Below, one piece after another: positions 1,242 to 33,414 of a stretch of 64,000 nucleotides of DNA. This DNA is from an uncultured Alphaproteobacteria bacterium (GTDB taxonomy: Bacteria > Pseudomonadota > Alphaproteobacteria > SP197). The position numbers and the translations under genes are program-made. The notes under the pieces were generated by a model that had not been told where the DNA came from, did not search any database, and saw only the letters and a list, made by a program, of their open reading frames with translations. The stretch covers positions 1,738,225 through 1,802,224 of the forward strand of contig OY282363.1 of assembly GCA_958295695.1 (NCBI GenBank). The letters run 5' to 3'. Position 1 is the stretch's first letter, and each line of letters begins with the position of its first letter.

Positions 1242-1361
1242 GAGCGTTCCTCCGAGAGGATCCGCCGGCGTCCTGTCATACGGATATTGTACGGACAAGG
1301 ACGCATCGACGCCGGATGTCAATGGCGCTCCAACATGCCTCGCACGAGCCCCAGGCGACGA

Positions 1362-1910
1362 CTACTCGGTCGCCGCGGCCTCATCCTCTTCCTTCATCTG
1401 CTTGAGCAGTTCGGCGTTGTCCATCATGGCCTGCTTGCGGGCGCTACAGGAGCAACCGCCGTACTGGGCCCAGGTCACGGGATCGACGAAGGGGCCCGAC
1501 CACATGCCGACGCCGTCCCGTTCGGCGGCCGCGGCGCGCTCGAGATACTCCGCGCCGCGGTCTTCGTCGGGCACGGCAAGCCCGGCGTCGATCATGGCGC
1601 CGGCGAGGTCGCGGCCCGCGGCGCTGCAACGGCCCACGAGGCCCGCGCCCGTTTCCGCGATGTCCGAGCAGACGACCTCGTCGGCGCCGATCGCTTCTTC
1701 GAGATAGAGCGCCGCGTCCCAGCCGCAGGACCAGACGTTGTCCCTGGAACCGCAATTCTGGGTGATGGTCGGCGCGTGTACGCCATGGAGGGTCACCTCC
1801 CGTTCGCCGAACCGCACGGTGTCGCCGTCCATCACCATGGGTTGGCCGGCGAACTCGGCGAACGCCAGAGCGGGCGCCAGAGCGAGGATTGCCGTCAGCA
1901 GACGTTTCAC
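1362..1910 (-). CDS. secreted thermonuclease (SNase-like) family protein
   Basis: This is the C-terminal 182 codons of ORF 1362..2696. A GTG start at 1910 is preceded by GGAGGG. The signal peptide is VKRLLTAILALAPALAFA. An SNase-like core is present (MDGDTVRFG..V.LHGVHAP...GRCSAAGRDLAGAMIDAGLAV). Confidence 0.75.
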   Translation of the reverse strand: MKRLLTAILALAPALAFAEFAGQPMVMDGDTVRFGEREVTLHGVHAPTITQNCGSRDNVWSCGWDAALYLEEAIGADEVVCSDIAETGAGLVGRCSAAGRDLAGAMIDAGLAVPDEDRGAEYLERAAAAERDGVGMWSGPFVDPVTWAQYGGCSCSARKQAMMDNAELLKQMKEEDEAAATE

Positions 1911-1984
1911 GGTGTCCCTCCATCGTGTTTGCCGAGCGACCGGAGTATGGCCCAGGCGCGGGAACCGCGCCAAGAGGCCGGATT

Positions 1985-2788
1985 TCACGTTTCCGCGCGC
2001 CGCAGAACGGCGATGAGCTCGTCTTCGAACGGAACGAGCGCGAGGTCGCGGCCGATGCGGGCGGCCAGCGCTTCGACGTGGCTCCGGTAGGTCTCCCGCA
2101 TGCCCTTCTCCCGGCCGCCGAGCGACCGTGCGGGGTAGGTGACGACCACTTGGGGGACGTCGGCGAGGCGCCGGAGCAGCGCGAGGGACGCGCCGTCGTC
2201 CTGCCGGTCGAGGCAGGGCAGGGTTTTGAGCGCCAACGCCAAGTCCGCGCCGCCGCTCTCGATTCCGCCCAGAACGTCGGCCCACAGGCTTTCGCCCGGC
2301 CGGCCGAGGCGCTTGAGAAGCCGCCCCGTCGCCTCCGCGACGCGGCGGTTCGCCTCCACGGCGCGGTAGCGGGTCGAGGGCGGTAGACCCATGAACGGCA
2401 GCGCGAAACCGTTGAAACCCGCCGCGACATCCAGGATGTGCGCGGGGAACCCGGTCTGGGCCCAGATGGCGGCGTAGAAGGCGTCCAGACGGTCGAGCCG
2501 CTCCGCGCTGGAGCGGTGCAGGCGGAGGACCGCCCGGCATGTCTCGACGATGTCGGCGCCGGTGTCCAGCGCATCGAGCCGGCGTTCGAGCGCGCGCAGG
2601 CTCCCGGGATCGAGGTAGGCGCCGAAAGCCTGATGCAACTTGCGCTTGGCGGCCTTCAACGCCTCGGCGGGCCTCGAATGCCGCTCGATCGCCCATCGCG
2701 CCGTTCGCTCCAGGGCCTCGGGCGCCAGGTCGCGGTACTTCGACGATGACGAGAGGACCCCGACGACCGAAGCGAGGGGATCAGCCAT
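1985..2788 (-). CDS. FmrO/Rmt/Arm-family 16S rRNA (guanine1405-N7)-methyltransferase homologue
   Basis: The 267-aa product is collinear with remembered RmtB/ArmA motifs: SSKYRDLAPEALERT; KLHQAFGAYL; LRLHRSSAERLDRLDAFYAAIW; ILDVAAGFNGFALPFM; DLALALKTLPCLDRQ; VVVTYPARSLGGREKGMRETY. The ATG at 2788 overlaps the upstream stop by 8 nt. Confidence 0.85.
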   Translation of the reverse strand: MADPLASVVGVLSSSSKYRDLAPEALERTARWAIERHSRPAEALKAAKRKLHQAFGAYLDPGSLRALERRLDALDTGADIVETCRAVLRLHRSSAERLDRLDAFYAAIWAQTGFPAHILDVAAGFNGFALPFMGLPPSTRYRAVEANRRVAEATGRLLKRLGRPGESLWADVLGGIESGGADLALALKTLPCLDRQDDGASLALLRRLADVPQVVVTYPARSLGGREKGMRETYRSHVEALAARIGRDLALVPFEDELIAVLRRAET

Positions 2789-3866
2789 CGGCCTCGCTCC
2801 GGCGCATCCTGTCGATCAACCGGGCGTAGAATCCGAGGTTGTGGCGCGTGGCCAGCCGCTCCGCCGCCGCATCGCCGATCTTGAAGAGATGATGAAGGTA
2901 GGCGCGCGAGGGGCCTTCGGGATCGAGGGACGGGTCTAGGGCCGACCGGTCTCGCGAGTGCCGTTCATGCTCCATGTAGAGAACATCATAAGATTTATTA
3001 TTTTTCAATATATTATCACTATTATCTAATGTAATATATAAACGCTTGCGACGAGCGTTGCGAGTGGGCAGGGCGCAGTCGAACAGACGGTAGCCGGCCC
3101 GCCAGGCCGCGAGCATGTTTTCCGGCTTTCCGATGCCGAGCGCATGCTTGGGGGCGTCCGCGGGCAGCAGGTCCGCGGTCATGGCGACCATGTCCGTCAG
3201 CAGGCCGTCGTCGCCGATGGGCCAGCCGCCGAAGCCGAAACCGTCGAAACCCATGCCGGCGAGCTCGCCGGCGCAACGTCTGCGCAGGTCGGGATCGGCG
3301 CCGCCCTGGACGACCGCGAAGAGCAGGGGGCGCCCGGCGGCGGCGGCGCCCGGTTCGCAGCCGGCCCGGGCGACGAATTCGTCGCGGCAGCGCCGCGCCC
3401 AGTCGAGCGTCCGTTCGATCCCGGCCCGCTGCGCCTCGGCGGGATCGTTGGGGTGGGTGCACTGGTCGAGGCAGAACAGGATGTCGGCGTCGAGATCGAG
3501 CTGGCGCCGGATACACTTCTCGGGCGTGAGGAGGCGCTTCCTGGCGCCCTTTTCGTGCCGGTAGACGAAGCCCCTGTCGGTCACGCTGCCGAGGCCCGCG
3601 CCGGACGCGGCCATCGACCACGCCTGGAAGCCTCCGGAATCGGACGCGGCGATGCCGTTCCAGCCCATGAAGCGGTGGACGCCGCCCACGGCCTTCACGG
3701 TCGAGGCGCCCGGCCGCGTGGCGAGATGCAGGCTGTTCACCATCAGCGCCTCGACGCCGCATTCGGCGAGGTCGCGGGAATCGAGACCCTTCACGACCGC
3801 GCGCGTGCCGTCGGGCAGGAACGCCGGCAGGCGGAGCGGGCCGCGGCGGGTGCCGAGGACCTTCAC
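2781..3866 (-). CDS. tRNA-guanine transglycosylase (TGT) fold protein, divergent (no Zn-cysteine cluster)
   Basis: The 361-aa product carries TGT motifs: LPAFLPDGT, SDSGGFQAW, LFCLDQCT, FGFGGW, ALGIGKPEN, LFDCALPTRNARR, SRAYLHHL, RHNLGFYARLI. The CxCxxC zinc motif is replaced by SLDPEG. The GTG start at 3866 overlaps the rsmI stop (GTGA). Confidence 0.85.
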   Translation of the reverse strand: MKVLGTRRGPLRLPAFLPDGTRAVVKGLDSRDLAECGVEALMVNSLHLATRPGASTVKAVGGVHRFMGWNGIAASDSGGFQAWSMAASGAGLGSVTDRGFVYRHEKGARKRLLTPEKCIRRQLDLDADILFCLDQCTHPNDPAEAQRAGIERTLDWARRCRDEFVARAGCEPGAAAAGRPLLFAVVQGGADPDLRRRCAGELAGMGFDGFGFGGWPIGDDGLLTDMVAMTADLLPADAPKHALGIGKPENMLAAWRAGYRLFDCALPTRNARRKRLYITLDNSDNILKNNKSYDVLYMEHERHSRDRSALDPSLDPEGPSRAYLHHLFKIGDAAAERLATRHNLGFYARLIDRMRRSEADG

Positions 3867-4573
3867 GCCCGGCCCTTCGTCCGCGGGAACTTCGGGTTGT
3901 CGCCGGCGATCACGACCGTGACCTCGCCCCTGGGCGTCTCCTCCGAGAACCGCGCCGCGAGGGTCGAGATCCAGCCCCGGGCGGTTTCCTCGAACATCTT
4001 GGTGAGCTCGATGCAGACCGCCGCCCTGCGGTCGCCATAGACCTCCAGCGCGTCGGCCAGCAAGGCGCCCAGCCGGTGGGGCGATTCGAACAGCACCTGG
4101 GTGTGGCCGCTGCCGGTTTCGGCGGCCAGGAAGGTCCGCCGCTTGCCGGCCTTGCGCGGCGGGAAGCCGCGGAACGTGTAGCTCGCCGTCGGCAGGCCCG
4201 AGAGCGCGAGCGCGGTGGCGACCGCCGTCGGTCCCGGAACCGCCTCGACCGCGAAACCCTCTTCGGTGGCCATACGGACCGCGCGAAAACCGGGATCGCT
4301 GAGCCCCGGCATGCCGGCGTCGGTGGCGAGCCCCACCTTGAGACCCCGGCGCAGCAGGCCCGCCATGCGTTCCGTGGCCCGGTCCTCGTTATGGTCGTGG
4401 CAGGAGAAGACCACGGGCGGGCTGCGCAGGCCGAAGCGCTCGTAGAGCTTGCGTGTGCGGCGCGTGTCCTCGCAGGCGAGAGCGTCGAGCGAACCCAGGG
4501 TATCGAGGACCCGCTTCGAAATGTCGTCCAGGTTGCCGATAGGCGTGCCGATCAGGATGAGCGTGCCCGTCAT
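3863..4573 (-). CDS. rsmI: 16S rRNA (cytidine1402-2'-O)-methyltransferase RsmI-like
   Basis: An internal ATG at 4573 in ORF 3863..4714 is preceded by GGAAGG. RsmI pattern: LILIGTPIGNLDDISKRVLDTLGSLDALACEDTRRTRKL...ATDAGMPGLSDPGF...VPGPTAVATALALSGLP...FESPHRL...ELTKMFEE. Confidence 0.85.
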   Translation of the reverse strand: MTGTLILIGTPIGNLDDISKRVLDTLGSLDALACEDTRRTRKLYERFGLRSPPVVFSCHDHNEDRATERMAGLLRRGLKVGLATDAGMPGLSDPGFRAVRMATEEGFAVEAVPGPTAVATALALSGLPTASYTFRGFPPRKAGKRRTFLAAETGSGHTQVLFESPHRLGALLADALEVYGDRRAAVCIELTKMFEETARGWISTLAARFSEETPRGEVTVVIAGDNPKFPRTKGRA

Positions 4574-4632
4574 GCGCCTTCCGTTCTTGACCCCGCGTCC
4601 GCGCCCCGTTTCCATGCCCGCGTTCGGGCGGG

Positions 4633-6729
4633 TTGTCGAGCATGGCGGGTTCGAAGGAGACCCTCGCGGCCCTGGTGGCGCCGCGGCGCATCGCGGTGGT
4701 CGGCGCCACCCCACGCGAGGGCGCGGTGGGCAACCGGGTGATCCGGCATGTCGCCGGGCCGCGCTTCGCCGGCGGCGTCGTCGCGGTCAACCCGGGCTAC
4801 GGCGAGGTGCTCGGCCGCACTTGCCACCCTTCGCTGGAAGCGCTTCCCGACGCCGCCGATTGCGCGGTCATGTGCGTCGGCGACAACCGCGTCGAGGCGG
4901 CCGTCGAGGACGCCGCGCGCGCCGGCGTCAAGGCGGTCGTCCTGCTCGGCCGCCTCTACGATCCGGGCCACGGCGGCCCCACGCTCCCGGAGCGTGTCGC
5001 GGGCCTCTGCCGGGAGGCCGGCATGGCCGCCTGCGGGGCGAACTGCATGGGTGTGTTCAACACCATCGACGATGTGTGCCTGGCCATGAGCCACCTGCCC
5101 GGGCTGGACCGGCCCGGGCGCATCGGCCTGCTGTCCCACAGCGGCTCGACCTGGTCGGGGCTGGGCGGAAATCACCGGCCGTTGCGTTTCGGGATCGGCG
5201 TCTCGATGGGCAACGAGCTCGTGACGGGCCTGGCGGACTATCTCGAGTTCCTCGTCGAACGTCCCGAAACCTCCGCCATCGGTCTCGTGCTGGAGACGGT
5301 GCGCGACGGCGACCGTTTCGTCGCCGCCGCGGAGGCGGCGGACAGGGCCGGCGTCCCCCTCGTCGCCCTGAAACTCGGCAAGACCGAGAAGGCGCGCGGG
5401 TTCGCGCTCTCCCACAGCGGCGCCCTGGCGGGCGACGAGCGGGTCTACGACGCCGTGTTCCGCCGCCGCAACGTCATCGGCGTCGACACGCTCGACGAGA
5501 TGGCGGATACGCTGGAGGCGATGGCCTGCGGCCGCGCGCCCACGGCCGACACGGTTGGAATCCAGACAGATTCCGGCGGCGAGCGGCAGCTCATCGCCGA
5601 TCTCGCCGAGCGCAACAAGGTGCCGCTCGCTGTCTTCGGCGAGGCCACCCGGGCGGCGCTGGCCGGGGTGCTCGATCCGGGCCTGGAGCCCGACAACCCC
5701 GTGGATTACTGGGGCGAGGGAGGTCTTCCCGTCGCGCCCAGGGTCATGGACGCGATCGCGCGGGCGCCGGAGGTCGGGGTCGTGGTCTTCTCCACCAACA
5801 TGGTGTCGGGCCGTGCGCTGCTCAACGCCTCGACCGCCGCGCTCGAGGACGCCCACCGGGCGACGGACAAGCCCTGCATGATGCTGGCGAACATCTCCGA
5901 CGCCGTCGACGCCGGGGAGGCCGCGCGCCTCCGCGACGCGGGAATCCCCGTCCTTTCGGGCACCGAGACCGGTCTCAGGGCGATCGGCCATCTGATCGGA
6001 TGGCACGCGCGCCGGAGAGAGAGCGGAGAGCGCGGCGGCGCGGTCGAACCACCGGATTCCGGGATCGTGGCGTACTGGCGTCGGCGGCTCGAGGACCGCG
6101 CGCCGGCGCCGGAGGAGGCGATCGCCATGGTCGCCGATTTCGGCGTGCCGGCGCCCGAGACCGCGGTGTGCGCGGACGAGCGGGACGCGGTCGCCGCGGC
6201 GGAACGCATCGGATTCCCGGTCGTGCTGAAGACGGCGGACCCTTCGATCCCGCACAAGACCGACGTGGGCGGCGTTGTTCTGGATATCGGGACCGATGAC
6301 GAGCTTCGCGCGGCCTACCGGGCCATGGCCGGCGCGCTCGGATCCCGCGTCCTGATCCAGCCGATGGTCTCCCCAGGTGTCGAGATGCTCGTCGGGATGA
6401 CGTCGGATCCGACCTTCGGGCCGGTCATGACCCTGGCGACGGGCGGTGTCCTGACGGAGGTGCTGGACGACGCGGTGGCGGCGGCGCCGCCGGTGTCGCC
6501 CGGCGAGGCCGCCGATCTGGTCGCCGGCCTCAAGGGTTCGGTCCTGCTCGATGGCGTGCGCGGCGCGCGGCCGGCGGACCGCGACGCGCTGGCCCGGGCC
6601 GTGTCGCGCCTCTCGGCGATGGCGGTGGCGCTCGGCGACCTGATCGGCGCGTTCGACGTCAATCCCCTGATCGTCCACGAGCGGGGCGTGACCGCCGTCG
6701 ACGCGCTGGTGACGCCGCGGGGACCGTGA
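4633..6729 (+). CDS. acetate/acyl--CoA ligase (ADP-forming) family protein (CoA-binding + ATP-grasp domains)
   Basis: The 698-aa product has an N-terminal CoA-binding pattern (RRIAVVGATPREGAVGNRV) and a succinyl-CoA-synthetase-like flavodoxin region. The C-terminal ATP-grasp region contains GFPVVLKTADPSIPHKTDVGGV. The start could be the ATG at 4642 rather than the TTG at 4633. Confidence 0.8.
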   Translation: MSSMAGSKETLAALVAPRRIAVVGATPREGAVGNRVIRHVAGPRFAGGVVAVNPGYGEVLGRTCHPSLEALPDAADCAVMCVGDNRVEAAVEDAARAGVKAVVLLGRLYDPGHGGPTLPERVAGLCREAGMAACGANCMGVFNTIDDVCLAMSHLPGLDRPGRIGLLSHSGSTWSGLGGNHRPLRFGIGVSMGNELVTGLADYLEFLVERPETSAIGLVLETVRDGDRFVAAAEAADRAGVPLVALKLGKTEKARGFALSHSGALAGDERVYDAVFRRRNVIGVDTLDEMADTLEAMACGRAPTADTVGIQTDSGGERQLIADLAERNKVPLAVFGEATRAALAGVLDPGLEPDNPVDYWGEGGLPVAPRVMDAIARAPEVGVVVFSTNMVSGRALLNASTAALEDAHRATDKPCMMLANISDAVDAGEAARLRDAGIPVLSGTETGLRAIGHLIGWHARRRESGERGGAVEPPDSGIVAYWRRRLEDRAPAPEEAIAMVADFGVPAPETAVCADERDAVAAAERIGFPVVLKTADPSIPHKTDVGGVVLDIGTDDELRAAYRAMAGALGSRVLIQPMVSPGVEMLVGMTSDPTFGPVMTLATGGVLTEVLDDAVAAAPPVSPGEAADLVAGLKGSVLLDGVRGARPADRDALARAVSRLSAMAVALGDLIGAFDVNPLIVHERGVTAVDALVTPRGP

Positions 6730-6824
6730 GTGTCCGGTGGCGCGGCCCATGCAGATTTCGCATGGATGGGGCGACGAAATCCCGCTACCGCGCGGGCCGG
6801 CGGAAAACTATCTCGCCCCTCGAC

Positions 6825-6849
6825 GGCCCCGGACGAAGGCGGGCCTTTT
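6825..6849 (+). terminator. possible intrinsic terminator after the acyl-CoA ligase gene
   Basis: GGCCCCG / CGGGCC stem (one bulged C) with loop GACGAAGG, followed by TTTT at 6846-6849. It lies ~100 nt after the stop at 6729. Confidence 0.35.
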
Positions 6850-6868
6850 GCCGGCGAGGAACAAGGCC

Positions 6869-7039
6869 ATGTCCAACATTCTCCGCAAGCTGCGCGCCGA
6901 GTGGCGGGTGAAGAGCATGCGCCGGGAGCTCGCCGGCCTGACGGACGGGCAGCTCGACGATCTCGGCATCCATCGCGGTCAGATCGCCGATCTGGCGCGG
7001 TACTGCCACGGCCTCGGGCCGCGTCCAGACAGCATCTGA
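6869..7039 (+). CDS. DUF1127 domain small protein
   Basis: An internal ATG at 6869 in ORF 6737..7039 is preceded by GAGGAA. The 56-aa product MSNILRKLRAEWRVKSMRRELAGLTDGQLDDLGIHRGQIADLAR has the DUF1127 signature (L..L.D..L.DIGI.R..I). Confidence 0.8.
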   Translation: MSNILRKLRAEWRVKSMRRELAGLTDGQLDDLGIHRGQIADLARYCHGLGPRPDSI

Positions 7040-7197
7040 CATCCGCCCGGCTTCCTCCGGCCCGGAGTATCGCGCGACAGGGTTCCCGAGGCTGGCGTAC
7101 TTCGGACGCCACGACAAACCCTGTCCGCGCCGTCCGAGGCCGATTGCCGCGCGACTCGCCAACCTGTATCGTCCGGCCGGTCAGCCGGAGGCGTCCG

Positions 7198-8358
7198 ATG
7201 AATCCGACCGAGATGTACGGCCCGCTCCCGGGCGGGTTGCACGACGATCCGCGCCGATCCTACACGATGGCCTCGCGCTACTACACCGACCCCGCGGTTC
7301 TCGACGCGGAGATGGACAGGATCTTCGCGCGTTCGTGGCTCTTCGTGGGTCACGAAAGCCGGATCGCCGAACCGGGAAGCTACAGGACGGTCACGGTCGC
7401 CGACGAGAGCCTGGCGCTGGTCCGCGGCCGCGACGGCGAGCTCCGCTGCTTCTACAACGTGTGCCAGCATCGCGCGCACCGCATCCTGACCGGCGAGGGC
7501 GCGCTCAAGCTCACCATGGTGTGCCCCTACCACGGCTGGGCCTACAACCTGGACGGCACACTGAGGACGGCGCGCGGGTGCGAGAACGTCGAGAACTTCG
7601 ACAAGAGCGAATTCGGCCTCGAGCAGGTGCGTGTGGAAACCATGCTGGGTCTGATCTTCGTCAACCTCGACCCCGGCGCGCGGCCGTTCCGCGAACAATA
7701 TGCCGGACTGGAGGAGGACATCCTGCGCTGGATGCCGCGCGCCGACGGGCTCGGCTTCGCCCGCGCGCGGGATTTCACGATCGAGGCCAACTGGAAGGTC
7801 GTGATCGACAACTTCCAGGAATGCTACCACTGCGAGCCGGCGCATCCGGCCTTCGTCGATATGGTGGCGATGCCGACCTACCGCAACAGGACGCACCGGT
7901 TCTGGTCGGCCCAGACCTCGGACAAGCCGAGTTCCAGGAACAGTTCCGCCTACGCCTTCGAGACCGGTGACGTGGATTTCGGCTATGCGGGCTACTTCGT
8001 CTGGCCGAACCTGACGATCTGGCTGATGCCGGGCGAGCCGAACCTCATGACCCTGCAGATGCTGCCGGACGGTCCGGAACGTTGCGTCGAACACCTGCAT
8101 TGGCATTCGCTGGGCGGCGAACTGACCGGGCAGGCCGTGTCCGCCATCGACTATGTCGTCGATGTTCTGCAACCCGAGGACATCTCGATTTGCGAAAGCG
8201 TCCACCTGGGCCTGAAGTCGCGCGGCTACGACCGGGGCCGCTTCATCGTCGACCGCGACCGGAGCCACATCAGCGAGCACGGCGTCCACCACTTCCACAT
8301 GCTGGTGATGCAGGCGCTGGAGGGCGGACCGTCCCCGGCGACACAGGCCGCGGAGTAG
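7198..8358 (+). CDS. Rieske [2Fe-2S] aromatic-ring-hydroxylating oxygenase alpha subunit family protein
   Basis: An internal ATG at 7198 in ORF 6730..8358 is preceded by GGAGG. The Rieske motif is CQHRAH..17..CPYHGW. The mononuclear-iron region is NFQECYHCEPAHP. No reductase partner lies in the window. Confidence 0.85.
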   Translation: MNPTEMYGPLPGGLHDDPRRSYTMASRYYTDPAVLDAEMDRIFARSWLFVGHESRIAEPGSYRTVTVADESLALVRGRDGELRCFYNVCQHRAHRILTGEGALKLTMVCPYHGWAYNLDGTLRTARGCENVENFDKSEFGLEQVRVETMLGLIFVNLDPGARPFREQYAGLEEDILRWMPRADGLGFARARDFTIEANWKVVIDNFQECYHCEPAHPAFVDMVAMPTYRNRTHRFWSAQTSDKPSSRNSSAYAFETGDVDFGYAGYFVWPNLTIWLMPGEPNLMTLQMLPDGPERCVEHLHWHSLGGELTGQAVSAIDYVVDVLQPEDISICESVHLGLKSRGYDRGRFIVDRDRSHISEHGVHHFHMLVMQALEGGPSPATQAAE

Positions 8359-8397
8359 GGGACGCGGGCGGTCCGTCCCGTCCCGGAGGATGGAGGC

Positions 8398-9006
8398 ATG
8401 ACCGCGACCGCCGACTTCTACTACTCCCCGGGAAGCCGCTACTCGTATCTGGCGGCGACCCGGATCGCCCGCATCGAGCGCGGCGCCGGCGCCGTCTTCA
8501 ACTGGTTGCCGCTCCAGAGCAGCCGGCTGATCGGACGCGGCGGCAAGGACCCGTTCGCCGGCGAACCCCTGTCGGGCCAGTACGACTGGGACTTCCGGCG
8601 CCGGGACGCGGAGGCTTGGGCGGCCTACTACGGGGTCCCGTTCCGCGAGAGCCACGGCCGGCTTTCCTTCGACGAGGAGCTGATCGCCCGCGCGGCGCTG
8701 GCGGCCAGGAAGCAGGACGCCGTGGTCGCCATGAGCCTCCGCCTCTTCGCGATGGTTTACGAGGACGACCGGACCGCGTTGGACGCCGACGACTACATCG
8801 CTGCGGCGGAGGCCCTCGGGCTGGATGGGGCGCGCTACGCCCGGGATCTCATGAGCCGGGAGCTCGGGGGCGAGAACACGGCGTCGATCGGGGAGGCCGC
8901 CCGCCGCGGCGCGTTCGGCGTGCCGACCTTCTTCGTGGGCGAACGCATGTTCTGGGGCAACGACCGGCTGCCGCTCGTCGAGGCGGCGTTGCGGGGAGAT
9001 ATTTGA
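8398..9006 (+). CDS. 2-hydroxychromene-2-carboxylate isomerase / DsbA-like thioredoxin-fold protein
   Basis: The 202-aa product has DFYYSPGSRYSYLA at the N-terminus and GAFGVPTFFVGERMFWGNDRL near the C-terminus, which is typical of the HCCA-isomerase family. Confidence 0.8.
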   Translation: MTATADFYYSPGSRYSYLAATRIARIERGAGAVFNWLPLQSSRLIGRGGKDPFAGEPLSGQYDWDFRRRDAEAWAAYYGVPFRESHGRLSFDEELIARAALAARKQDAVVAMSLRLFAMVYEDDRTALDADDYIAAAEALGLDGARYARDLMSRELGGENTASIGEAARRGAFGVPTFFVGERMFWGNDRLPLVEAALRGDI

Positions 9007-9009
9007 AAG

Positions 9010-9056
9010 GGACCGCGCCCGCAGGGGGTGGGAGCCGCTCGGCGGGCGCGCGGTCC
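9010..9056. terminator. GC-rich hairpin between the convergent isomerase-like and dps genes (candidate bidirectional terminator)
   Basis: GGACCGCGCCCGC (9010-9022) pairs with GCGGGCGCG-CG-GGTCC (9042-9056) with a 2-nt bulge. It sits between the stops at 9006 (+) and 9065 (-). There is no clear U-run. Confidence 0.4.
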
Positions 9057-9064
9057 GCGGCCGG

Positions 9065-9535
9065 TCAGCCGATCGAGGCGTTCAGCATCCAGGCCGTCTT
9101 GTCGTGCTCGGTCATGCGGCCGATCATCATGTCGGCGGTGACCTCGTCACCGGCCTCTTGCGCGGCTTCCATCGCGGCCTTGGCCGAAAGGGCGAGCCGG
9201 GCGTGGTCGCGGGCGAGATTCCCGAGCATGACGTCGGCGTCCTCGGCGCCGTCGTCCTCGTCGAGGCTGGAGAGCTCCGCGAAGGCGGCATAGCTCCCGG
9301 GCGCCCGGCGACCGATGGCGCGGATGCGCTCCGCGACCTCGTCGGCGGCGAGGAACAGCGCGTTGTACTGCTCGCCGAACATGGCGTGGAGGCTGTGGAA
9401 GCGCGGCCCGGTGACGTTCCAGTGGTAACCCTGTGTCTTGAGCATCAGGAGGTAGGTTTCGGCGAGCACGGCGCCGAGCTTGGAGGCCACCGCGCCGCAG
9501 CTGTTGGCGGATGTCGTCCGGGTTCCCTGGGGCAA
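9065..9535 (-). CDS. dps: Dps family DNA-protecting ferritin-like protein
   Basis: The 156-aa product carries YLLMLKTQGYHWNVTGPRFHSLHAMFGEQY and DEVAERIRAIG (Dps ferroxidase-site pattern). The TTG start at 9535 is preceded by GGAGAAGAG. Confidence 0.9.
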   Translation of the reverse strand: MPQGTRTTSANSCGAVASKLGAVLAETYLLMLKTQGYHWNVTGPRFHSLHAMFGEQYNALFLAADEVAERIRAIGRRAPGSYAAFAELSSLDEDDGAEDADVMLGNLARDHARLALSAKAAMEAAQEAGDEVTADMMIGRMTEHDKTAWMLNASIG

Positions 9536-9542
9536 GGCTCTT

Positions 9543-9586
9543 CTCCGTTTCCTAGATTAGAATAATTCCAAATATAAGAAACGGAG
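9543..9586. repeat. perfect 9-bp inverted repeat (CTCCGTTTC / GAAACGGAG) enclosing a 26-nt AT-rich loop, immediately upstream of dps
   Basis: Read directly: 9543-9551 and 9578-9586 are reverse complements. On the minus strand the 3' arm GAAACGGAG contains the dps ribosome-binding GGAG. Confidence 0.7.
9556..9572. promoter_or_regulatory. Irr/ICE-like operator (ATTAGAA-TAA-TTCCAAA) in the dps upstream region
   Basis: It matches the remembered alphaproteobacterial iron-control-element consensus TTTAGAA-N3-TTCTAAA at 12 of 14 half-site positions. The centre lies ~30 nt upstream of the dps start. Confidence 0.4.
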
Positions 9587-9642
9587 CCGGCGTTTTCAAG
9601 GATCGAGCGCCGGTTTCGCACATTGCCGCGGCGGCCGGGGAG

Positions 9643-10767
9643 CTACGAGGCGCTGTCGCGGGTCTCGCGGAGGCTCCTTCCCAGCCGCGCGCAGCCCTCC
9701 TCGATCTCGTCGAGGCCGGGAAAGCCGAAGGCCAGGCGGATGAAGGGTCCGGCGTCGCCCCGGACGTGAAAATCCGAGCCGTGGGCGACATCGACGCCGT
9801 TGCGGTTGCCTACGGCCCGGAACGCGCCGGGATCGACATCGTCCGGCAGCCGCACCCAGACGAAAAGGCCGCCGGGGGGATTCGTCACCGCGCACTCGTT
9901 TCCCAGGTGCCGGCGCAAGCCGTCGACCATGGCGTCCCGCTTGGCCCTGAGCGCGACATTCGCCATCTCGACGTGCTCCCAGAGGCGGTCGCGCAGGTAT
10001 TCGTGCGTGACGGCCGAGGCCAACGTGTTCGGGCCGGCGTCCATGCGCTTGGCGACGATCCGCTCCAGCATCGGCGGACGGGCGACCAGATAGCCCAGGC
10101 GGACGCCCGGAGCGAAAATCTTGGAGAGGGAGCACAGGTAGATCTGGCGCGGGTCGTCGTCGAGGGCATAGAGGGCCGGCGGCTTGTCGCCATCGTAATG
10201 CACGTCGCCGTAGCAGTTGTCCTCCACGATCGGGATGTCGTGCTCGCGCGCGAGCTCGATCATGCGCAGGCGGCGGTCGGTGGGCAGCACCGCGCCCGTC
10301 GGGTTCTGGTAGGTCGCCAGCGTGTAGATGAAGCGCGGTTTGCGTCCGTCGTCGGCGAGACGGTTCAGCGTGTCGGCCAGCGCGTCCATCCGCATGCCGC
10401 GTTCGTCGAGCGGCACGCCGACCATCTCGATCCCCGACTCCCGGTACGCCCGGATCGTGCCGACGTAGCAGTACTCCTCCATCACCACGATATCGTCGCG
10501 GCCGTCGCGGAGGGCGTCGGTGGCGAGCATGATGGCCTGCATCGATCCGTTGGTGACAAGCATGTGGCCGGGATCGACCGCGACGCCCTCCCGGTCGAAC
10601 TCGCGCCGGGCCATCAGCATGCGAAGGCCCTCGTGGCCCAGATCGCCCGGATAGGTGTTGAGCCCGACGGTCAGGTCCGAGACGGCGCGCCGGGCCGCTT
10701 CGGCGAAGGCTTCGGTGGGAAAGGTCCCGGGGTTCGTGTTGCCCGTGGCGAAACCGATCGCGTCCAT
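9643..10767 (-). CDS. PLP-dependent aminotransferase (class I/II fold, 2-aminoadipate/AspC-like)
   Basis: An internal ATG at 10767 (MDAIGFATGN) starts the C-terminal 374 codons of ORF 9643..11220. Motifs include YQNPTGAVL and the PLP-lysine motif SLSKIFAPGVRLGY. Confidence 0.8.
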   Translation of the reverse strand: MDAIGFATGNTNPGTFPTEAFAEAARRAVSDLTVGLNTYPGDLGHEGLRMLMARREFDREGVAVDPGHMLVTNGSMQAIMLATDALRDGRDDIVVMEEYCYVGTIRAYRESGIEMVGVPLDERGMRMDALADTLNRLADDGRKPRFIYTLATYQNPTGAVLPTDRRLRMIELAREHDIPIVEDNCYGDVHYDGDKPPALYALDDDPRQIYLCSLSKIFAPGVRLGYLVARPPMLERIVAKRMDAGPNTLASAVTHEYLRDRLWEHVEMANVALRAKRDAMVDGLRRHLGNECAVTNPPGGLFVWVRLPDDVDPGAFRAVGNRNGVDVAHGSDFHVRGDAGPFIRLAFGFPGLDEIEEGCARLGRSLRETRDSAS

Positions 10768-10778
10768 GGGCCGAACCT

Positions 10779-11513
10779 CTATTCGGCGGCGCCACGGACC
10801 GCGTCCAGAGCCGGCGAGGGGCCGAGCCAGCGGTCGATGAAACGGGGCACCCAGACGTCGACCAGACGGTCGTATTTCTCGGCGTTCGCGAGCTGCTCGT
10901 CGGGCTGCTGGGCGCCGCGTTCCTCCAGCAGGTGGGACGCCTCGGTCGTCCAGAACCTGATGATGTCGAGCGTGCATTCGGGGTGGAACTGCACTCCGTA
11001 GACGCTGCCGTCGGTCCGGTACATCTGGTGCGGGAAGAGGCCTGAGACGCCGCGGGCCAGAAGCTCGCAGCCCGCGGGAAGGTCGAAGCCCTCGCTGTGC
11101 CACTGGTAGAAATGGCGCGTGTCGCCCAGGAGATCGTCGCCGGCGCCGGTCGGCGCGATCTCGGTGAACCCGATCTCGTGCCAGCCGTCGTCGTGGGGCT
11201 TCACGGCGGCGCCGAGGCAACGCGCCAGCATCTGCGCGCCGAGGCAGACGCCGAGGAACGGCGTGCCGGCCTCGAGCACCCGGTCGATCCAGGCCAGTTC
11301 CCCGGCGATGAAATCGAGCGTCGAATCGTCGTTGGCGCTCATCGGCCCGCCGAACACGACGGCGCCGGCGACCTCGTCGAAGCTCTCGGGCAGGACGTCG
11401 CCTTCCTTCGCGCAGCAGCGGATCTCCTCGAATCCGCTGTCGCGGATGCCGCGACCGATGCGGCCGGTGTTCGATTCCGCGCCGTGAACGACGCAGATGA
11501 CCTTGTTTTTCAT
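10779..11513 (-). CDS. class I (type 1) glutamine amidotransferase-like protein
   Basis: An internal ATG at 11513 (MKNKVICVVHG) starts the C-terminal 244 codons of ORF 10779..13622. The nucleophile elbow is PFLGVCLGAQMLA and a late GVQFHPE motif is present. Confidence 0.8.
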   Translation of the reverse strand: MKNKVICVVHGAESNTGRIGRGIRDSGFEEIRCCAKEGDVLPESFDEVAGAVVFGGPMSANDDSTLDFIAGELAWIDRVLEAGTPFLGVCLGAQMLARCLGAAVKPHDDGWHEIGFTEIAPTGAGDDLLGDTRHFYQWHSEGFDLPAGCELLARGVSGLFPHQMYRTDGSVYGVQFHPECTLDIIRFWTTEASHLLEERGAQQPDEQLANAEKYDRLVDVWVPRFIDRWLGPSPALDAVRGAAE

Positions 11514-11566
11514 GGCCGCGGAGTGTCGCGATCCGCGGCCCGCCGTCAACCGGCTGTCCCGTGGAT

Positions 11567-12796
11567 TCAGGCGGTCGCCGCGGGGCTCTCGGCTTCGAGC
11601 TGGCGGACCTCGAAGCCCGCGGCCGAAAGCTTGCCCATGATGTCGGCGATGTGGTCCCGGCCGAGCGTCTCCAGCACGACGTCGAGGTCGGCCTGCTTGA
11701 CGGGCAGGCTCGAGAAGGCGCGTTGGTGAAAGACGTCGATGATGTTCGCGTCGCAGCCTCCGATGATGCCGGCGATCCTGGCCAGCGTGCCCGGCGCGTC
11801 GGGAATCTCGATGCGGAGCCGAACCATGCGTCCGTCGCGCACCAGCCCGTGCTCGATCACCGCCGAGAGGATGCGGCTGTCGATGTTGCCGCCCGAAAGC
11901 ACCAGGCCGACCTTCTTGCCGGCGAACCGGTCGGAGTGGGCCAGCAGGGCCGCCAGGGAGGCCGCGCCGCCGCCTTCCGAGACGGTCTTCTCGATTTCCA
12001 GATAGGTCTGCACCGCACGTTCGAGCTGGTTCTCGGTCACGAGGACGATGTCGGAGACGAGTTCCCTGACGATCGGAATGGCGGCCTTGCCGGGCGTCTT
12101 CACGGCGATGCCGTCGGCGATGGTGCGCCCGCCCGCCTTCACGTCGAGCCCCTGGAGCGCCTGGCGCATCGACGGGAACATGGCGGCCTCCACGCCGACC
12201 ATTTCGATGTCGGGGCGCATCGCCTTGGCCGCGGTGGCGATGCCGCCGATCAGTCCGCCGCCCCCGATCGGCGCGACGATGACATCGAGGTCGGGCGCGC
12301 ATTCGAGCATCTCCAACCCGACCGTGCCCTGCCCGGCCATGACTTTCTCGTCGTCGTAGGGATGCACGAACGTCAGGTTCTCGTCGGCCGCGACCTTCCG
12401 GGCGGCGACGGCGGCCTCGTCGATCGTCTCGCCCGAAAGCACGACGCGGGCGCCGAAGCGCCGGGTGTTCTTGACCTTCACCGCCGGCGCGCCCTCGGGC
12501 ATCACGATGGTCGAGGGAATGCCGAGCCGCTGGGCGTGGTAGGCCACGGCCTGGGCGTGGTTGCCGGCCGACATGGCGATCACGCCGCGCGCCCGTTCCT
12601 CCTCGGAGAGCGACGACATCTTGACCAGGGAGCCCCGGTCCTTGAACGAGGCCGTGAACTGCTGGTTCTCGAACTTCACGTGGACCTGGGCGCCGCTGAT
12701 CTCCGAGAGCGTGCGCGACAGCGTGCAGGGCGTCCTGACGATCTGGCCCTCGAGAAGCCGGGCGGCGTCCCGGATGTCGGCGAGCGTCACGGCCAT
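11567..12796 (-). CDS. ilvA: threonine ammonia-lyase (threonine dehydratase) with C-terminal ACT-like regulatory domain
   Basis: The 409-aa product carries KFENQQFTASFKDRG (PLP lysine), MSAGNHAQAVAY and PIGGGGLIGG, with an ACT-like tail (RLRIEIPDAPGTLARI). Confidence 0.85.
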   Translation of the reverse strand: MAVTLADIRDAARLLEGQIVRTPCTLSRTLSEISGAQVHVKFENQQFTASFKDRGSLVKMSSLSEEERARGVIAMSAGNHAQAVAYHAQRLGIPSTIVMPEGAPAVKVKNTRRFGARVVLSGETIDEAAVAARKVAADENLTFVHPYDDEKVMAGQGTVGLEMLECAPDLDVIVAPIGGGGLIGGIATAAKAMRPDIEMVGVEAAMFPSMRQALQGLDVKAGGRTIADGIAVKTPGKAAIPIVRELVSDIVLVTENQLERAVQTYLEIEKTVSEGGGAASLAALLAHSDRFAGKKVGLVLSGGNIDSRILSAVIEHGLVRDGRMVRLRIEIPDAPGTLARIAGIIGGCDANIIDVFHQRAFSSLPVKQADLDVVLETLGRDHIADIMGKLSAAGFEVRQLEAESPAATA

Positions 12797-12886
12797 GACC
12801 GGGCTCCTTGCGAATCGGGCGCGGAGCGTGCCGAAAGCGGGACGCCCATGCGTGCCCGGATGCGACCCGCCGGGGTCGCGGAGAAA

Positions 12887-14506
12887 TCAGGACCTCGCGC
12901 CGGCCAGGGCCTCGGGCGTGTCGATATCGACGAGAACGGAATCGTCCGCCATCTCGACTTCGGCGACGAGGTCCTCGTTCTCGCCGATGAGGTGGCGGGC
13001 GCCGGTGTCGCCCGTGACGGCGGCCATGGCCTCGAAGAACCGTCGGTCCCAGAGAACGGGATTGCCGCGCTTCCCGTCGTGGGTCGGGACCACGATGGCG
13101 CGGCCCTCGACGGGATCGTAGGCGGCGACGAGCCGGGCGATGGCGTCCGCCGCGACCCCGGGCATGTCGCCCAGCGCCACGATGACCGCGTCGATATCGG
13201 CCGGCAGGGCGGCCAGCCCCGTTCGCAAGGACGTGCCGAGGCCGGCGGCGAAGTCCTCGTTGCGGACGACCGTCAGGTCGCGGCCCTCCAGGGCCGCCTC
13301 GACGGCTTCGGCCTCGTGACCGGTCACCGCGGTCACCGTCGCGATCCCGGCCTCGATCAGGGCGTCGACGGTGTGGCGCACCATGGGTCTGCCGCCGATC
13401 TCGACGAGGAGCTTGTTGCGCGATCCCATGCGGCGGCTCTGTCCGGCCGCCAGGACGATCGCGGCGATGCGGGGAGGGCGGCGAGCCCGGTCCCCGGCGT
13501 CCTCGGGCGCGGCGCGCGGCCTCGGCCGCAGCGGGATTTCCTTGAGCAGGCCGCCGACCCCCATGGCCGCGATGTCGCGGCCGGTGACGCGCAGGCCCGC
13601 GGCGATACGCCGCAGGACCCAATCGAAACCGTTGAGCTTGGGCGAGCGGGCGCAGCCGGGAAGGCCGACGATCGTGGTCGTCCCCAGATGTCCCAGCAGC
13701 AGCAGGTTGCCGGGATCGACCGGCATCCCGAGGCGATCGACCGAACCGCCGGCCCGTTCGATGGCCGCCGGGATCACGTCGCGCCTGTCCGCGATGGCCG
13801 ATGCGCCGCAGATCAGGACCAGATCGTGGCGGGCGGTCTCCTCGGCGATCCGGTCGGCGAGGATGTCGGTCCTGTGGTCGATGCGGACCTGGCCGTCCAG
13901 CGCCAGCCCGAGGGCCGCCAGACGGTCGGCCACGACCCCGGCGGTCTTGTCCAGGACACGGTCCTTGACGGCGGCCGTCCGGGTCATGATGAGCGCCGCG
14001 CGGCGGAGCTTGAAGGGCGCGACGCCGATGACGCGGCCGGAGACGCGCGCCGCGACGAGGCAGCGGTCGAGGACGTCGCCCTGGACCGCGAAGGGGATGA
14101 TCTTGACGGTGGCGACCATCCGGCCGGCCGACACCGCCTCGAACGGGGGCAGCGTCGCCACGGTCACGGCTTCGTCCGTCCCGTTGACGGCGTCGATCGC
14201 GGCGGCGTCGATCGCCGCGATACCGGATTCGGTCGCAAGGAGGTTGGCGCGGCCCGTGAAGGGCCGCTGGACCCGGATGGACGGCCCCGCCAGCGCGTCG
14301 GCCAGCATCCGCGCGGCCTCGTCCTCGTGGATATCGCCCTCTTCCAGGCGCGCGACGGTGACCGACTCCACCCCGGCCCGCCGGAGGCCCTCGACATGCG
14401 CGGCGTCCAGACGCAGGCCCTTCTTCAGAGTTTCTCCGCCGTAGCGCGCGCCGTGGACCAGGATCGCCCCAGCGGCCTCGCCCACGGGAATGCCGCCGAA
14501 CTTCAC
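12887..14506 (-). CDS. molybdopterin-binding domain / MocA-like molybdenum-cofactor cytidylyltransferase fusion protein
   Basis: The GTG start at 14506 overlaps the upstream stop (GTGA). The middle region has a MoCF-biosynthesis pattern (LVLICGASAIADRRDVIP...GMPVDPGNLLLLG). The C-terminal NTP-transferase pattern is IVLAAGQSRRMG..NKLL...ALGDMP. Confidence 0.75.
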   Translation of the reverse strand: MKFGGIPVGEAAGAILVHGARYGGETLKKGLRLDAAHVEGLRRAGVESVTVARLEEGDIHEDEAARMLADALAGPSIRVQRPFTGRANLLATESGIAAIDAAAIDAVNGTDEAVTVATLPPFEAVSAGRMVATVKIIPFAVQGDVLDRCLVAARVSGRVIGVAPFKLRRAALIMTRTAAVKDRVLDKTAGVVADRLAALGLALDGQVRIDHRTDILADRIAEETARHDLVLICGASAIADRRDVIPAAIERAGGSVDRLGMPVDPGNLLLLGHLGTTTIVGLPGCARSPKLNGFDWVLRRIAAGLRVTGRDIAAMGVGGLLKEIPLRPRPRAAPEDAGDRARRPPRIAAIVLAAGQSRRMGSRNKLLVEIGGRPMVRHTVDALIEAGIATVTAVTGHEAEAVEAALEGRDLTVVRNEDFAAGLGTSLRTGLAALPADIDAVIVALGDMPGVAADAIARLVAAYDPVEGRAIVVPTHDGKRGNPVLWDRRFFEAMAAVTGDTGARHLIGENEDLVAEVEMADDSVLVDIDTPEALAGARS

Positions 14507-15186
14507 GCGAGCTTTCCCCGCTGCGCGGCGACGACTTCGGCCATGATGGAAAGGGCGATCTCGGCCGCCGTCTTCGCGCCGATGTCGAGGCCGACCGGAC
14601 CCTTGACGCGCGCGACCGCGCCGTCCGGGAATCCGGCCTCCTTCAACCGTTCGATACGCCGAGCATGGGTCCGCTTGCTGCCCAGCGCTCCGATGTGGAA
14701 GACGGGCGCCGAGAGCGCGAAGCGAAGCGCGGGATCGTCGATCTTGGGGTCGTGGGTCAGCGTCACCACGGCGGTCCGGCGATCGGGCCGGAGCTCGGCG
14801 AGCGCGTCGTCGGGCCAGGCGTCGAGCAGGACCGCGCCGGGAAAGCGCTCCGTATCCGCGTAGGCGCGGCGGGGGTCGATCACGGTCACCGCGTATCCGA
14901 CGGCGCGGGCGAGGGCGGCGAGCGGTTCGGCGATATGAACCGCGCCGACGACGATCAGGCGCGGGGGCGGGTTGAAGACGTGGAGGAAGAGAGGCCGGCC
15001 TCCGATCTCGACGCTTGCCGAACGGTCGGACGCGAAGGCTTCGGCCACGGCTTCGGCGATCGCCGCGCCGGGCGCTTCTCCGGGCGCGATCAGCGTTTCG
15101 TCGCCGGTATCGAGCCAAGTGGCCAGCACGACCGGACGTTTGTCGCGCCGCGCGTCGTTGAGCGCCATGAGGGTCCGGGGGTTCAT
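14503..15186 (-). CDS. XdhC/CoxI family accessory protein (Rossmann-like C-terminal type)
   Basis: An internal ATG at 15186 (MNPRTLMAL). Pattern: PRLIVVGAVHIAEPLAALA...VTVIDPR...HIGALGSKRTHARR...GPVGLDIGA. Confidence 0.8.
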   Translation of the reverse strand: MNPRTLMALNDARRDKRPVVLATWLDTGDETLIAPGEAPGAAIAEAVAEAFASDRSASVEIGGRPLFLHVFNPPPRLIVVGAVHIAEPLAALARAVGYAVTVIDPRRAYADTERFPGAVLLDAWPDDALAELRPDRRTAVVTLTHDPKIDDPALRFALSAPVFHIGALGSKRTHARRIERLKEAGFPDGAVARVKGPVGLDIGAKTAAEIALSIMAEVVAAQRGKLA

Positions 15187-33337: not shown

Positions 33338-33414
33338 CGGGGCGTGGCGCAGTCCGGTAGCGCACCTGCTTTGGGAGCAGGGGGGCGCTGGTTCGAATCC
33401 AGCCGCCCCGACCA
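33338..33414 (+). tRNA. tRNA-Pro (anticodon UGG)
   Basis: I folded the cloverleaf by eye. The acceptor stem is CGGGGCG/CGCCCCG, the anticodon stem-loop is CCTGC-TTTGGGA-GCAGG, and the T arm is GCTGG-TTCGAAT-CCAGC. The 3' CCA is encoded. Confidence 0.9.

Follow-up and report, generated by a model that had tools for sequence, protein, structure and literature searches.

A widespread and apparently undescribed combination of a distinct TGT subfamily with RsmI-like and FmrO-like predicted methyltransferases of the ribosomal decoding centre

Methyltransferases of the FmrO/Rmt family are known almost exclusively as aminoglycoside-resistance determinants of clinical strains and antibiotic producers, and their natural role and origin are open questions. 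The residues used by RmtC for docking on the 30S subunit and for methylation of G1405 at N7 have been established by a 30S-RmtC structure together with mutagenesis; Lys204 touches N7 of G1405, and residues of the N1 region dock on helices 44, 45 and 27 (h44, h45, h27) of 16S rRNA (PMC10288597). For RsmI, which methylates the ribose of C1402, the roles of the catalytic and h44-contacting residues have been defined, and the C-terminal three-helix domain of the E. coli enzyme binds h23b and is needed for activity, as its deletion abolishes C1402 methylation (PMC13037946). In canonical tRNA-guanine transglycosylase (Tgt; TGT for the enzyme class) the 231/232 peptide, which has Glu235 as partner, flips to present its NH toward guanine or its C=O toward the preQ1 aminomethyl group (PMC3660597). 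DpdA and archaeal ArcTGT are precedents for TGT paralogues with a changed nucleic-acid substrate. Here we describe an operon in which all three families meet. It lies within a 64-kb window, the whole stretch of 64,000 nucleotides analysed on contig OY282363.1 of an uncultured alphaproteobacterium, and encodes an RsmI-like, a TGT-like and an FmrO/Rmt-like protein in this order (Table 1). An earlier note, made from the letters of the window alone, had assigned the three genes to these families, and profile matches to PF00590, PF01702 and PF07091 bear out all three assignments.

The trio is one translationally coupled operon: the genes share a strand, the stop codons of the first two overlap the start codons of their successors by GTGA and by ATGGCTGA, as the earlier note had read from the sequence, and the arrangement is kept in orthologous loci. 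The ATG start chosen for the RsmI-like gene fits the lengths of its orthologues and is preceded by a Shine-Dalgarno-like GGAAGG. Comparison among four Rhodospirillales orthologues reveals purifying selection on all three genes, with ratios of nonsynonymous to synonymous substitution (dN/dS) between 0.09 and 0.28 at a dS of about 1 or more (0.09-0.17 for the RsmI-like and 0.10-0.22 for the TGT-like gene). The trio is not specific to one strain, since it recurs with the same overlaps in other Rhodospirillales: overlaps and flanks are the same in the Rhodospirillales metagenome-assembled genome (MAG) GCA_014323865.1 and in an alphaproteobacterial chromosome of 3.75 Mb; in the orthologous loci L001 and L003 the overlaps of 4 and 8 nt are identical to those of the window.

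The TGT-like protein belongs to a subfamily which we term GGWP after a motif described below. A pattern-plus-tblastn scan derived from the subfamily alignment and covering one genome per species finds this subfamily in at least 541 species genomes, a count that is a lower bound obtained with subfamily-specific peptide patterns. Gene arrangement was surveyed in the best 80 of these loci, which stem from about 17 phyla. Carriers include Chloroflexota (all classes), Latescibacterota, Hydrogenedentota, Ignavibacteria/Bacteroidota, Planctomycetota, Armatimonadota, Acidobacteriota, Gemmatimonadota, Nitrospirota, Spirochaetota, Bacillota, Actinomycetota, Myxococcota and Patescibacteria, among others; Ornatilinea apprima P3M-1 is a carrier available in culture. 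An FmrO-like gene is part of 76 of the 80 loci and follows the TGT gene directly in 68, where the gap between the two has a median of -4 nt and is zero or negative in 50. A short RsmI-like gene directly precedes the TGT gene in 41 loci, again with a median gap of -4 nt. Nine loci carry two FmrO paralogues in tandem downstream, and in others a second copy is located upstream. The association also holds in the reverse direction: four out of four distantly related FmrO-like genes (31-37% identity) sampled from a protein search sit directly behind a TGT gene, three of them together with a TP_methylase gene. Furthermore, pairwise distances within one protein family correlate with those within the other two (Spearman 0.45-0.62) and the TGT tree roughly follows taxonomy, which argues for an old unit whose parts have evolved together. 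Conservation of the neighbourhood, proposed as a check in the earlier note, is therefore far stronger than expected, and the recurring order and overlaps exceed by a wide margin what chance would produce. Full-text literature searches yielded no paper that links a TGT with FmrO/Rmt enzymes or describes base exchange in rRNA, in agreement with the earlier note, which knew of no described system pairing a TGT with h44 methyltransferases. The trio is a widespread module in which known enzyme families occur in an apparently undescribed combination with a distinct TGT subfamily.

In some organisms the connection between TGT and FmrO-like protein is covalent. A Planctomycetota MAG encodes both domains in a single open reading frame of 663 aa, and PF01702 as well as PF07091 were confirmed in each of the proteins P0222-P0227, P0232 and P0250. 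The fusions fall into at least three divergent groups, among them a clade with 58-62% identity (P0223-P0227), a protein of 636 aa with 40% identity (P0232) and one of 709 aa with a long linker (P0250). In the AlphaFold2 (AF2) model of the natural fusion P0222 the two domains are predicted with local confidence (pLDDT) of about 90 and are joined by a disordered linker of 12 residues, the overall predicted TM score (pTM) being 0.60. The model is consistent with the linker serving as a flexible tether; rigid packing of the TGT and FmrO domains was considered and rejected on the same grounds. A protein of 907 aa, P0414, was rejected as an RsmI-TGT-FmrO triple fusion. It consists of an SMC_N/RecN-type N-terminal region and a complete FmrO domain (residues 654-904) and may be either a genuine fusion or the result of two genes having been called as one.

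The FmrO-like protein matches PF07091 over residues 15-259 of 267 (E 2e-42), scores 178 bits with the Rmt family model NF000466 and thus stays below the cut-off of 250, as do its relatives at 170-220 bits. Its nearest solved relative is the producer enzyme Sgm (E 4.5e-37, aligning with Sgm residues 20-279), and it aligns over its full length with RmtB and RmtC, including the N1/N2 domain that docks on the 30S subunit. Residues were mapped, here and for the other two proteins, by pairwise HMMER alignments and the published RmtC, RsmI and Tgt structures. The RmtC-essential residues are kept or conservatively replaced, matching positions being K20, Y21, R39, K47, R50 (K), H54, Y60, S107, D160 (E), K204, R211, K236 (R), R241 and M245. 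In the numbering of the window protein, H52, Y58, E145, K188, R226 and M230 correspond to RmtC H54, Y60, D160, K204, R241 and M245, and K17 and K48 to the docking residues K20 and R50; D160 is the acidic residue at the ribose of S-adenosylmethionine. The pattern extends to 92 TGT-linked FmrO-like proteins, in which S107 and an acidic residue at D160 are without exception, H54 and an aromatic residue at Y60 are found in 91 each, and K204, Y21 and hydrophobicity at the M245 position are kept in 90 each. Given the contact of Lys204 with N7 of G1405 and the docking of the N1 residues on h44, h45 and h27, it would be parsimonious that the FmrO-like protein forms m7G1405 on the 30S subunit.

Since the characterised members Sgm, RmtB, RmtC and ArmA are all resistance enzymes and Sgm is the closest of them, the locus could in principle be an island for aminoglycoside self-protection or resistance, built around the FmrO-like protein as the core function against 4,6-disubstituted deoxystreptamine aminoglycosides, with the other genes as passengers. 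We regard this as very improbable. Unlike the Rmt, Arm and Sgm enzymes, the FmrO-like protein is encoded outside any aminoglycoside biosynthetic cluster, plasmid or transposon; neither adjacent aminoglycoside biosynthetic genes nor hallmarks of mobile elements are apparent, and related genomes keep the locus in synteny. The module spans some 17 phyla consisting mainly of non-producers, its FmrO-like gene is frequently duplicated and obligately paired with a TGT gene, and this partner is retained almost everywhere, which is not the behaviour of a passenger. The suggestion of a ribosome-tuning or self-protection module in the earlier note accordingly holds only in part: self-resistance finds no support in the context, whereas the assignment of the two methyltransferases to the decoding centre is well supported.

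This assignment applies to the RsmI-like protein as well, which matches PF00590 (TP_methylase, E 6e-28) and passes the equivalog cut-off of the RsmI model TIGR00096 (181.3 against 167.9 bits). In the alignment with E. coli RsmI it keeps T19, P20, N23, E44-D45-T46-R47, H68, D92, D100 and K200; conserved are thus the metal/S-adenosylmethionine residues E44 and D100 and the residues holding C1400-A1408. The similarity is limited to positions of about 12-235 of the 286 residues of E. coli RsmI (model positions 2-225 of 275). The protein ends some 10 residues past the core domain and, in contrast to E. coli RsmI, lacks the C-terminal three-helix domain of 42-50 residues. Such short forms are the rule within the module. 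A further difference to RsmI is that some Anaerolineae carry the module copy as a divergent paralogue next to another short RsmI; in Brevefilum the module protein is the second and more divergent of the two. For both outer genes, which the earlier note had taken for h44 methyltransferases, retention of the residues defined in the RmtC-30S and RsmI-30S structures makes a role at the decoding centre well supported, as far as sequence can predict it.

The TGT-like protein matches PF01702 with an E value of 6e-79 and reaches 255.8 bits with the Tgt model TIGR00430, short of the equivalog cut-off of 306.75; other subfamily members score 320.2 (L070), 304.8 (L087), 294.2 (L020) and 258.7 bits (L091). 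Its AF2 model (pLDDT 89) has the (beta/alpha)8 fold with a C-terminal subdomain and is superimposed by Foldseek on Z. mobilis TGT with TM scores of 0.85-0.88 at 30-32% identity; identity with E. coli Tgt amounts to 33%. With the bacterial enzymes of the Z. mobilis/E. coli type (EC 2.4.2.29) it shares not only the fold but also the aspartates acting as nucleophile and acid, the pocket formed by Asp156, Gln203 and Gly230, the PTRxAR RNA-binding motif and the aromatic residues of the dimer interface. In an alignment of 32 subfamily sequences D263, D76, D134, Q187 and G213-G214, equivalent to the nucleophile Asp280 and to Asp102, Asp156, Gln203 and Gly229-Gly230, are invariant, as are the equivalents of Ser103, Cys158, Arg286 and Arg289. 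Counterparts of Lys52, Lys264, Tyr330 and His333 are retained in the TGT-like protein.

The most conspicuous deviation from canonical Tgt concerns the peptide switch. Leu231-Ala232-Val233-Gly-Glu235 is changed to Trp-Pro-Ile-x-x, with W215-P216 in place of Leu231-Ala232 invariant in the subfamily, hence the name GGWP, and the position of Glu235 is variable. To our knowledge, the Leu-Ala/Glu235 switch is conserved in bacterial as well as eukaryotic tRNA TGTs. With proline at position 232 there is no NH left to touch the bound guanine and to pair with Glu235, so that the switch cannot operate in the GGWP subfamily, and the pocket is presumably locked in a conformation that fits a 7-substituted base. 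Further differences are a shortened N-terminus, CTHP instead of CTPYP and an insertion of about 12 aa after the PTRxAR strand. In the window protein, three cysteines of the zinc site (CxCxxC...H) are replaced by D, S and P. The same three are missing from all members of the Rhodospirillales clade (P0001-P0024), where CDCxxC has become, for example, LDPEGP and the zinc-site histidine is kept; proteins from P0025 onward retain CDCxxC. Mutation of zinc ligands has been reported to inactivate E. coli Tgt; the TGT-like gene of the zinc-less clade is nonetheless under purifying selection.

The base exchange with a 7-deazaguanine that characterises the TGT fold is common to tRNA TGTs, DpdA and ArcTGT, and in Dpd and phage systems it is DNA that receives 7-deazaguanines from TGT-fold paralogues. 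That the TGT-like protein is likewise a paralogue of the DpdA type or of the Cap10 type of CBASS, modifying DNA or acting against phages, is scarcely credible. A reading as a defence system was rejected, as neither the three proteins nor the product of the gene downstream gave a PADLOC match, and partners resembling DpdB/DpdC, a QueC-like Cap9 or a nuclease are absent from the 80 loci. Full-length identity with tRNA TGTs amounts to 30-33%, and the subfamily reaches 256-320 bits on the Tgt model; the TGT-like protein is far nearer to bacterial tRNA Tgt than to ArcTGT (256 against 64 bits). Where the Dpd and archaeosine systems have DpdB/DpdC or ArcS-type proteins, this module has rRNA methyltransferases as partners.

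Which base the GGWP enzyme inserts is suggested by the genomic context in other carriers. Within the 64-kb window tblastn finds no homologue of QueA, QueC, QueD, QueE, QueF or YhhQ, in line with the earlier note, which had seen no que genes nearby. The TGT is no orphan, as relatives elsewhere are tied to genes for synthesis or transport of preQ1 and once to queA, which places it among the 7-deazaguanine enzymes of queuosine-precursor metabolism. In a Solirubrobacteraceae MAG (L020) queE, queD, queC, the rsmI-like, TGT-like and FmrO-like genes and queF follow each other in the same direction with overlaps or spacings of a few nucleotides, and the encoded QueE, QueD, QueC and QueF-II all exceed their NCBIfam cut-offs. 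In L091, queF-queC-queD-queE is divergent from TGT-FmrO-FmrO-RsmI-like-GNAT. A gene for a QueE-type radical-SAM protein lies just upstream in seven loci (Latescibacterota, Gemmatimonadota and L020), and a YhhQ-type transporter for queuosine precursors (TIGR00697, 109 bits) is encoded in seven Anaerolineae loci. Because preQ1 genes flank the module in these carriers, the TGT-like protein is very probably an enzyme that inserts preQ1 or preQ0.

A separate observation concerns the QueE-like proteins encoded ahead of the TGT-FmrO pair in Latescibacterota and Gemmatimonadota, which score 90-103 bits and thus remain well under the QueE cut-offs. Loci of this kind are L004-L007, L010, L011, L014, L016, L041 and L063, in which thrS-infC-rpmI-rplT follows the pair; L004-L007 additionally carry a GFO_IDH_MocA oxidoreductase gene. 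This divergent QueE-like enzyme might produce another 7-deazapurine.

The interleaving of methyltransferase genes with preQ1 genes in a single operon, together with the TGT-FmrO fusions, bears another possibility, namely that the FmrO-like and RsmI-like enzymes decorate a preQ1 nucleotide that the TGT has inserted into tRNA or another small RNA. N-methylation of the aminomethyl group and 2'-O-methylation of the ribose would, for example, give rise to a new hypermodified 7-deazaguanosine, and methylation could proceed in steps, given that a locus holds one FmrO paralogue or two. Methylated preQ1 is known from phage DNA. We consider such hypermodification improbable, as the FmrO-like proteins keep the RmtC residues that dock on h24, h27, h44 and h45 and the lysine that contacts N7, and the RsmI-like protein keeps those that grip C1400-A1408 of h44. 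Both patterns indicate the 30S subunit and an unmodified N7 rather than tRNA or a 7-deaza base.

The central question is therefore the RNA on which the GGWP TGT acts. We favour, at a probability of roughly 40%, a reading in which it acts on h44, with or without an additional activity on tRNA. This target is suggested by the near-obligate adjacency of TGT and FmrO-like genes in both directions, by the fusions and by the location of two methyltransferase genes between queC and queF in L020. It is furthermore suggested by the fact that the enzyme has given up the contact to N7 of guanine and that the downstream step of queuosine formation is missing in all but one locus. In such a pathway the RsmI-like protein would methylate the 2'-OH of C1402 and the FmrO-like protein N7 of G1405, both on the late 30S subunit and both opening helix 44. 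The TGT-like enzyme would exchange guanine for preQ1, or a close 7-deazaguanine, by a covalent mechanism of the Asp280 type. As a best guess it would use the same substrate state, that is the opened 5' strand of h44, where the FmrO-like partner to which it is tethered in the fusions would deliver it. The simplest target would be position 1405, possibly once methylation at N7 has turned the base into a good leaving group; an N7-methylated leaving base would need no hydrogen bond to N7. A neighbouring G-U step would be an alternative target. Where it is the sole TGT of the cell, the enzyme may serve G34 of tRNA as well, and a dual-substrate enzyme of this kind would fit all observations.

A more specific version of the h44 reading, which we judge unlikely, is an exchange primed by methylation, in which the FmrO-like protein makes m7G1405 and the GGWP TGT replaces it by preQ1. 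The FmrO-like protein would dock on the late 30S subunit, flip out G1405 and methylate its N7, whereupon the tethered or co-translated TGT would act, using a Trp-Pro pocket that offers no hydrogen-bond donor to N7 and is fixed so as to leave room for a substituent at position 7. Helix 44 would thereby gain a chemically stable, cationic isostere of m7G, and the RsmI-like protein would methylate C1402 on the same unwound strand. The chemistry of the scheme is appealing, since m7G is an activated leaving group, and 7-methylguanine is a known ligand of the TGT pocket.

It is almost as probable, on the other hand, that the TGT acts on tRNA only. The GGWP TGT would then be an ordinary tRNA-guanine34 enzyme with tRNA-Asp, -Asn, -His and -Tyr as substrates for preQ1 insertion, methylation of C1402 and G1405 by the RsmI-like and FmrO-like proteins would proceed independently of it, and the genes would be linked for co-regulation only, much as tgt is kept beside yajC-secDF in other bacteria. 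Several facts favour this explanation or weigh against action on h44. The fold and all catalytic and RNA-contacting residues are those of tRNA TGTs, including tRNA-type residues of RNA contact and dimer interface (K52, K264, R286, R289; Y330, H333), and the TGT-like protein has no extra domain for docking on the 30S subunit. L070 and L087, at 320 and 305 bits, reach or approach the Tgt equivalog level. Queuosine-pathway genes adjoin the module, with preQ1 genes in L020 and L091 and, in L087 from Caldilineae, a genuine queA (486 bits) directly upstream of the TGT gene; queA-tgt operons are the classical arrangement. The FmrO-like gene is absent although the flanks are intact in three loci with a TGT gene. 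One of these belongs to Patescibacteria, where the TGT gene stands alone amid translation genes, and it is unlikely that this carrier holds two TGTs. The roughly taxonomic TGT tree would suit a tRNA enzyme, and literature searches yielded neither an rRNA substrate for a TGT nor an experiment or structure placing one on rRNA. The fusions are weaker evidence than they appear, since overlapping genes fuse readily, and the P0222 model is without a fixed interface between its domains. Finally, as Lys204 contacts N7 in RmtC, the FmrO-like protein cannot act on a 7-deaza base, which constrains the order of events without proving it.

What a tRNA-only enzyme leaves unexplained is the two-way adjacency (76 of 80 loci and all four reciprocal samples) with its stop/start overlaps, the stability of fusions across 58-62% identity, the insertion of two rRNA methyltransferase genes between queC and queF in L020 and the loss of the Leu-Ala/Glu235 switch. 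In contrast to bacterial Tgt, the TGT-like protein is nearly always coupled, and at times fused, to an FmrO-type methyltransferase, and GGWP loci are without yajC-secDF-like neighbours in the cluster survey. queA is a neighbour in just one of the 80 loci. In addition, the alphaproteobacterial trio looks supernumerary to the presumed native proteobacterial genes and is yet under purifying selection.

Gene order in Anaerolineae deserves separate mention. In a Brevefilum species (L053, positions 3000-16700) the genes for RimO, MurJ, a divergent RsmI-like protein, the TGT-like protein and two FmrO-like proteins are accompanied by genes for an RsmF-like protein, lipid genes, RsmE, a YhhQ preQ transporter and a second short RsmI, and similar islands exist in L065, L067, L074, L078 and L081. 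With targets of the C1407 type for the RsmF-like protein, U1498 for RsmE and ribosomal protein S12 for RimO, this is a striking concentration of genes for modification of the decoding centre. In a Thermoflexales MAG (L083, positions 1273-3935) the RsmI-like and TGT-like genes are followed by a pseudouridine synthase gene (PseudoU_synth_2) in the slot usually taken by the FmrO-like gene.

The surroundings of the operon in the alphaproteobacterial window are summarised in Table 1. Apart from the operon itself, tblastn detects no second TGT, RsmI or FmrO in the 64 kb. The earlier note had placed the block in an accessory-looking region, a view contradicted by flanks that are syntenic in related Rhodospirillales MAGs. 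Close relatives share the divergent acyl-CoA synthetase-like gene upstream (CoA_binding/Succ_CoA_lig/ATP-grasp_5; present in L001) and an unannotated gene of about 185 aa downstream. A recent horizontal island was rejected on the basis of these syntenic flanks and of the roughly taxonomic TGT tree; the GC content of the operon equals that of its surroundings with the exception of one island of 90 nt. glmS, named in the earlier note as adjoining the block upstream, is supported by SIS domains. The gene behind the FmrO-like gene, previously called a secreted nuclease, gives no match in Pfam, PADLOC or the PDB, so that nothing in Pfam or the PDB backs a nuclease; homologues of 186-190 aa occupy the equivalent position in L001 and L003, and the gene, a neighbour specific to this lineage, may be a fourth cistron. 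Of the dead toxin-antitoxin pair noted earlier, an antitoxin remnant of the TacA type is recognisable, consistent with that claim, in an open reading frame that continues into unrelated Arg/Gly-rich sequence.

Regarding expression, the divergent intergenic region is presumed to be the promoter region of the operon; no match to the sigma-70 consensus was found within it. The sole sigma-70-like match (3035->3007, minus strand) lies in the AT-rich island inside the TGT-like gene, together with a terminator-like hairpin (3059->3041, minus strand). Here GC content over 60 nt falls to as little as 23% within a gene of about 70% GC, and A or T is used at third codon positions, too (TTA, ATA, AAT, AAA). 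The dip occurs at the same codons in the Rhodospirillales orthologues L001, L008 and L009 despite saturated synonymous divergence, and is not seen in high-GC carriers from other phyla. It may represent an internal promoter, an attenuator or a pause at rare codons. Control of the operon by a preQ1 riboswitch was considered and rejected: neither the window nor five representative loci yielded such an element at Rfam gathering thresholds, and the only matches in the window are two tRNA genes.

Table 1. Position of the operon, its gene overlaps and neighbouring features in the 64-kb window
Feature	Position	Strand	Remarks
RsmI-like 2'-O-methyltransferase gene	3863-4573	minus	236 aa from ATG at 4573; operon gene 1
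TGT-like base-exchange enzyme gene, GGWP subfamily	2781-3866	minus	361 aa, GTG start; operon gene 2
FmrO/Rmt-like 16S rRNA guanine-N7 methyltransferase gene (predicted)	1985-2788	minus	267 aa; operon gene 3
GTGA overlap, RsmI-like stop/TGT-like start	3863-3866	minus	4 nt; plus strand tcac
ATGGCTGA overlap, TGT-like stop/FmrO-like start	2781-2788	minus	8 nt; plus strand tcagccat
Divergent intergenic region	4574-4632		59 bp; between operon and acyl-CoA synthetase-like gene (4633-6729, plus)
AT-rich island	2960-3050	minus	inside TGT-like gene, codons ~275-300; encodes subfamily-specific insertion loop
Gene with signal-peptide-like N-terminus	1362-1910	minus	182 aa; 74 nt past FmrO-like stop; good GGAGG ribosome-binding site
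TacA-type antitoxin remnant	783-1187	minus	PF08681, E 8e-16, model positions 11-63 of 80
Two tRNA genes	33338-33411, 33843-33916	plus	sole Rfam matches at gathering threshold in window

Taken together, the association points to an undescribed link between base exchange with 7-deazaguanines and methylation of the decoding centre. The operon context ties 7-deazaguanine chemistry to this site, as preQ1 genes are interleaved with those for two helix-44 methyltransferases, and the GGWP subfamily stands apart from other TGTs in having abandoned the hallmark peptide switch between guanine and preQ1. Should the TGT act on rRNA, this would constitute a new class of rRNA modification and the first 7-deazaguanine base exchange in rRNA, and if the exchange were primed by N7-methylation, it would be the first case in which methylation serves to activate a base for transglycosylation. 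If the enzyme acts on tRNA, insertion of the queuosine precursor would be coupled with m7G1405 and Cm1402, an unexplained coordination of anticodon and decoding site. The chance of something categorically new is real but unproven. Most of the environmental diversity of the FmrO/Rmt family is firmly linked with a TGT and in many cases with RsmI, which provides a housekeeping context for a family of resistance enzymes, and the TGT-FmrO linkage offers a concrete hypothesis for the ancestral function of this family.

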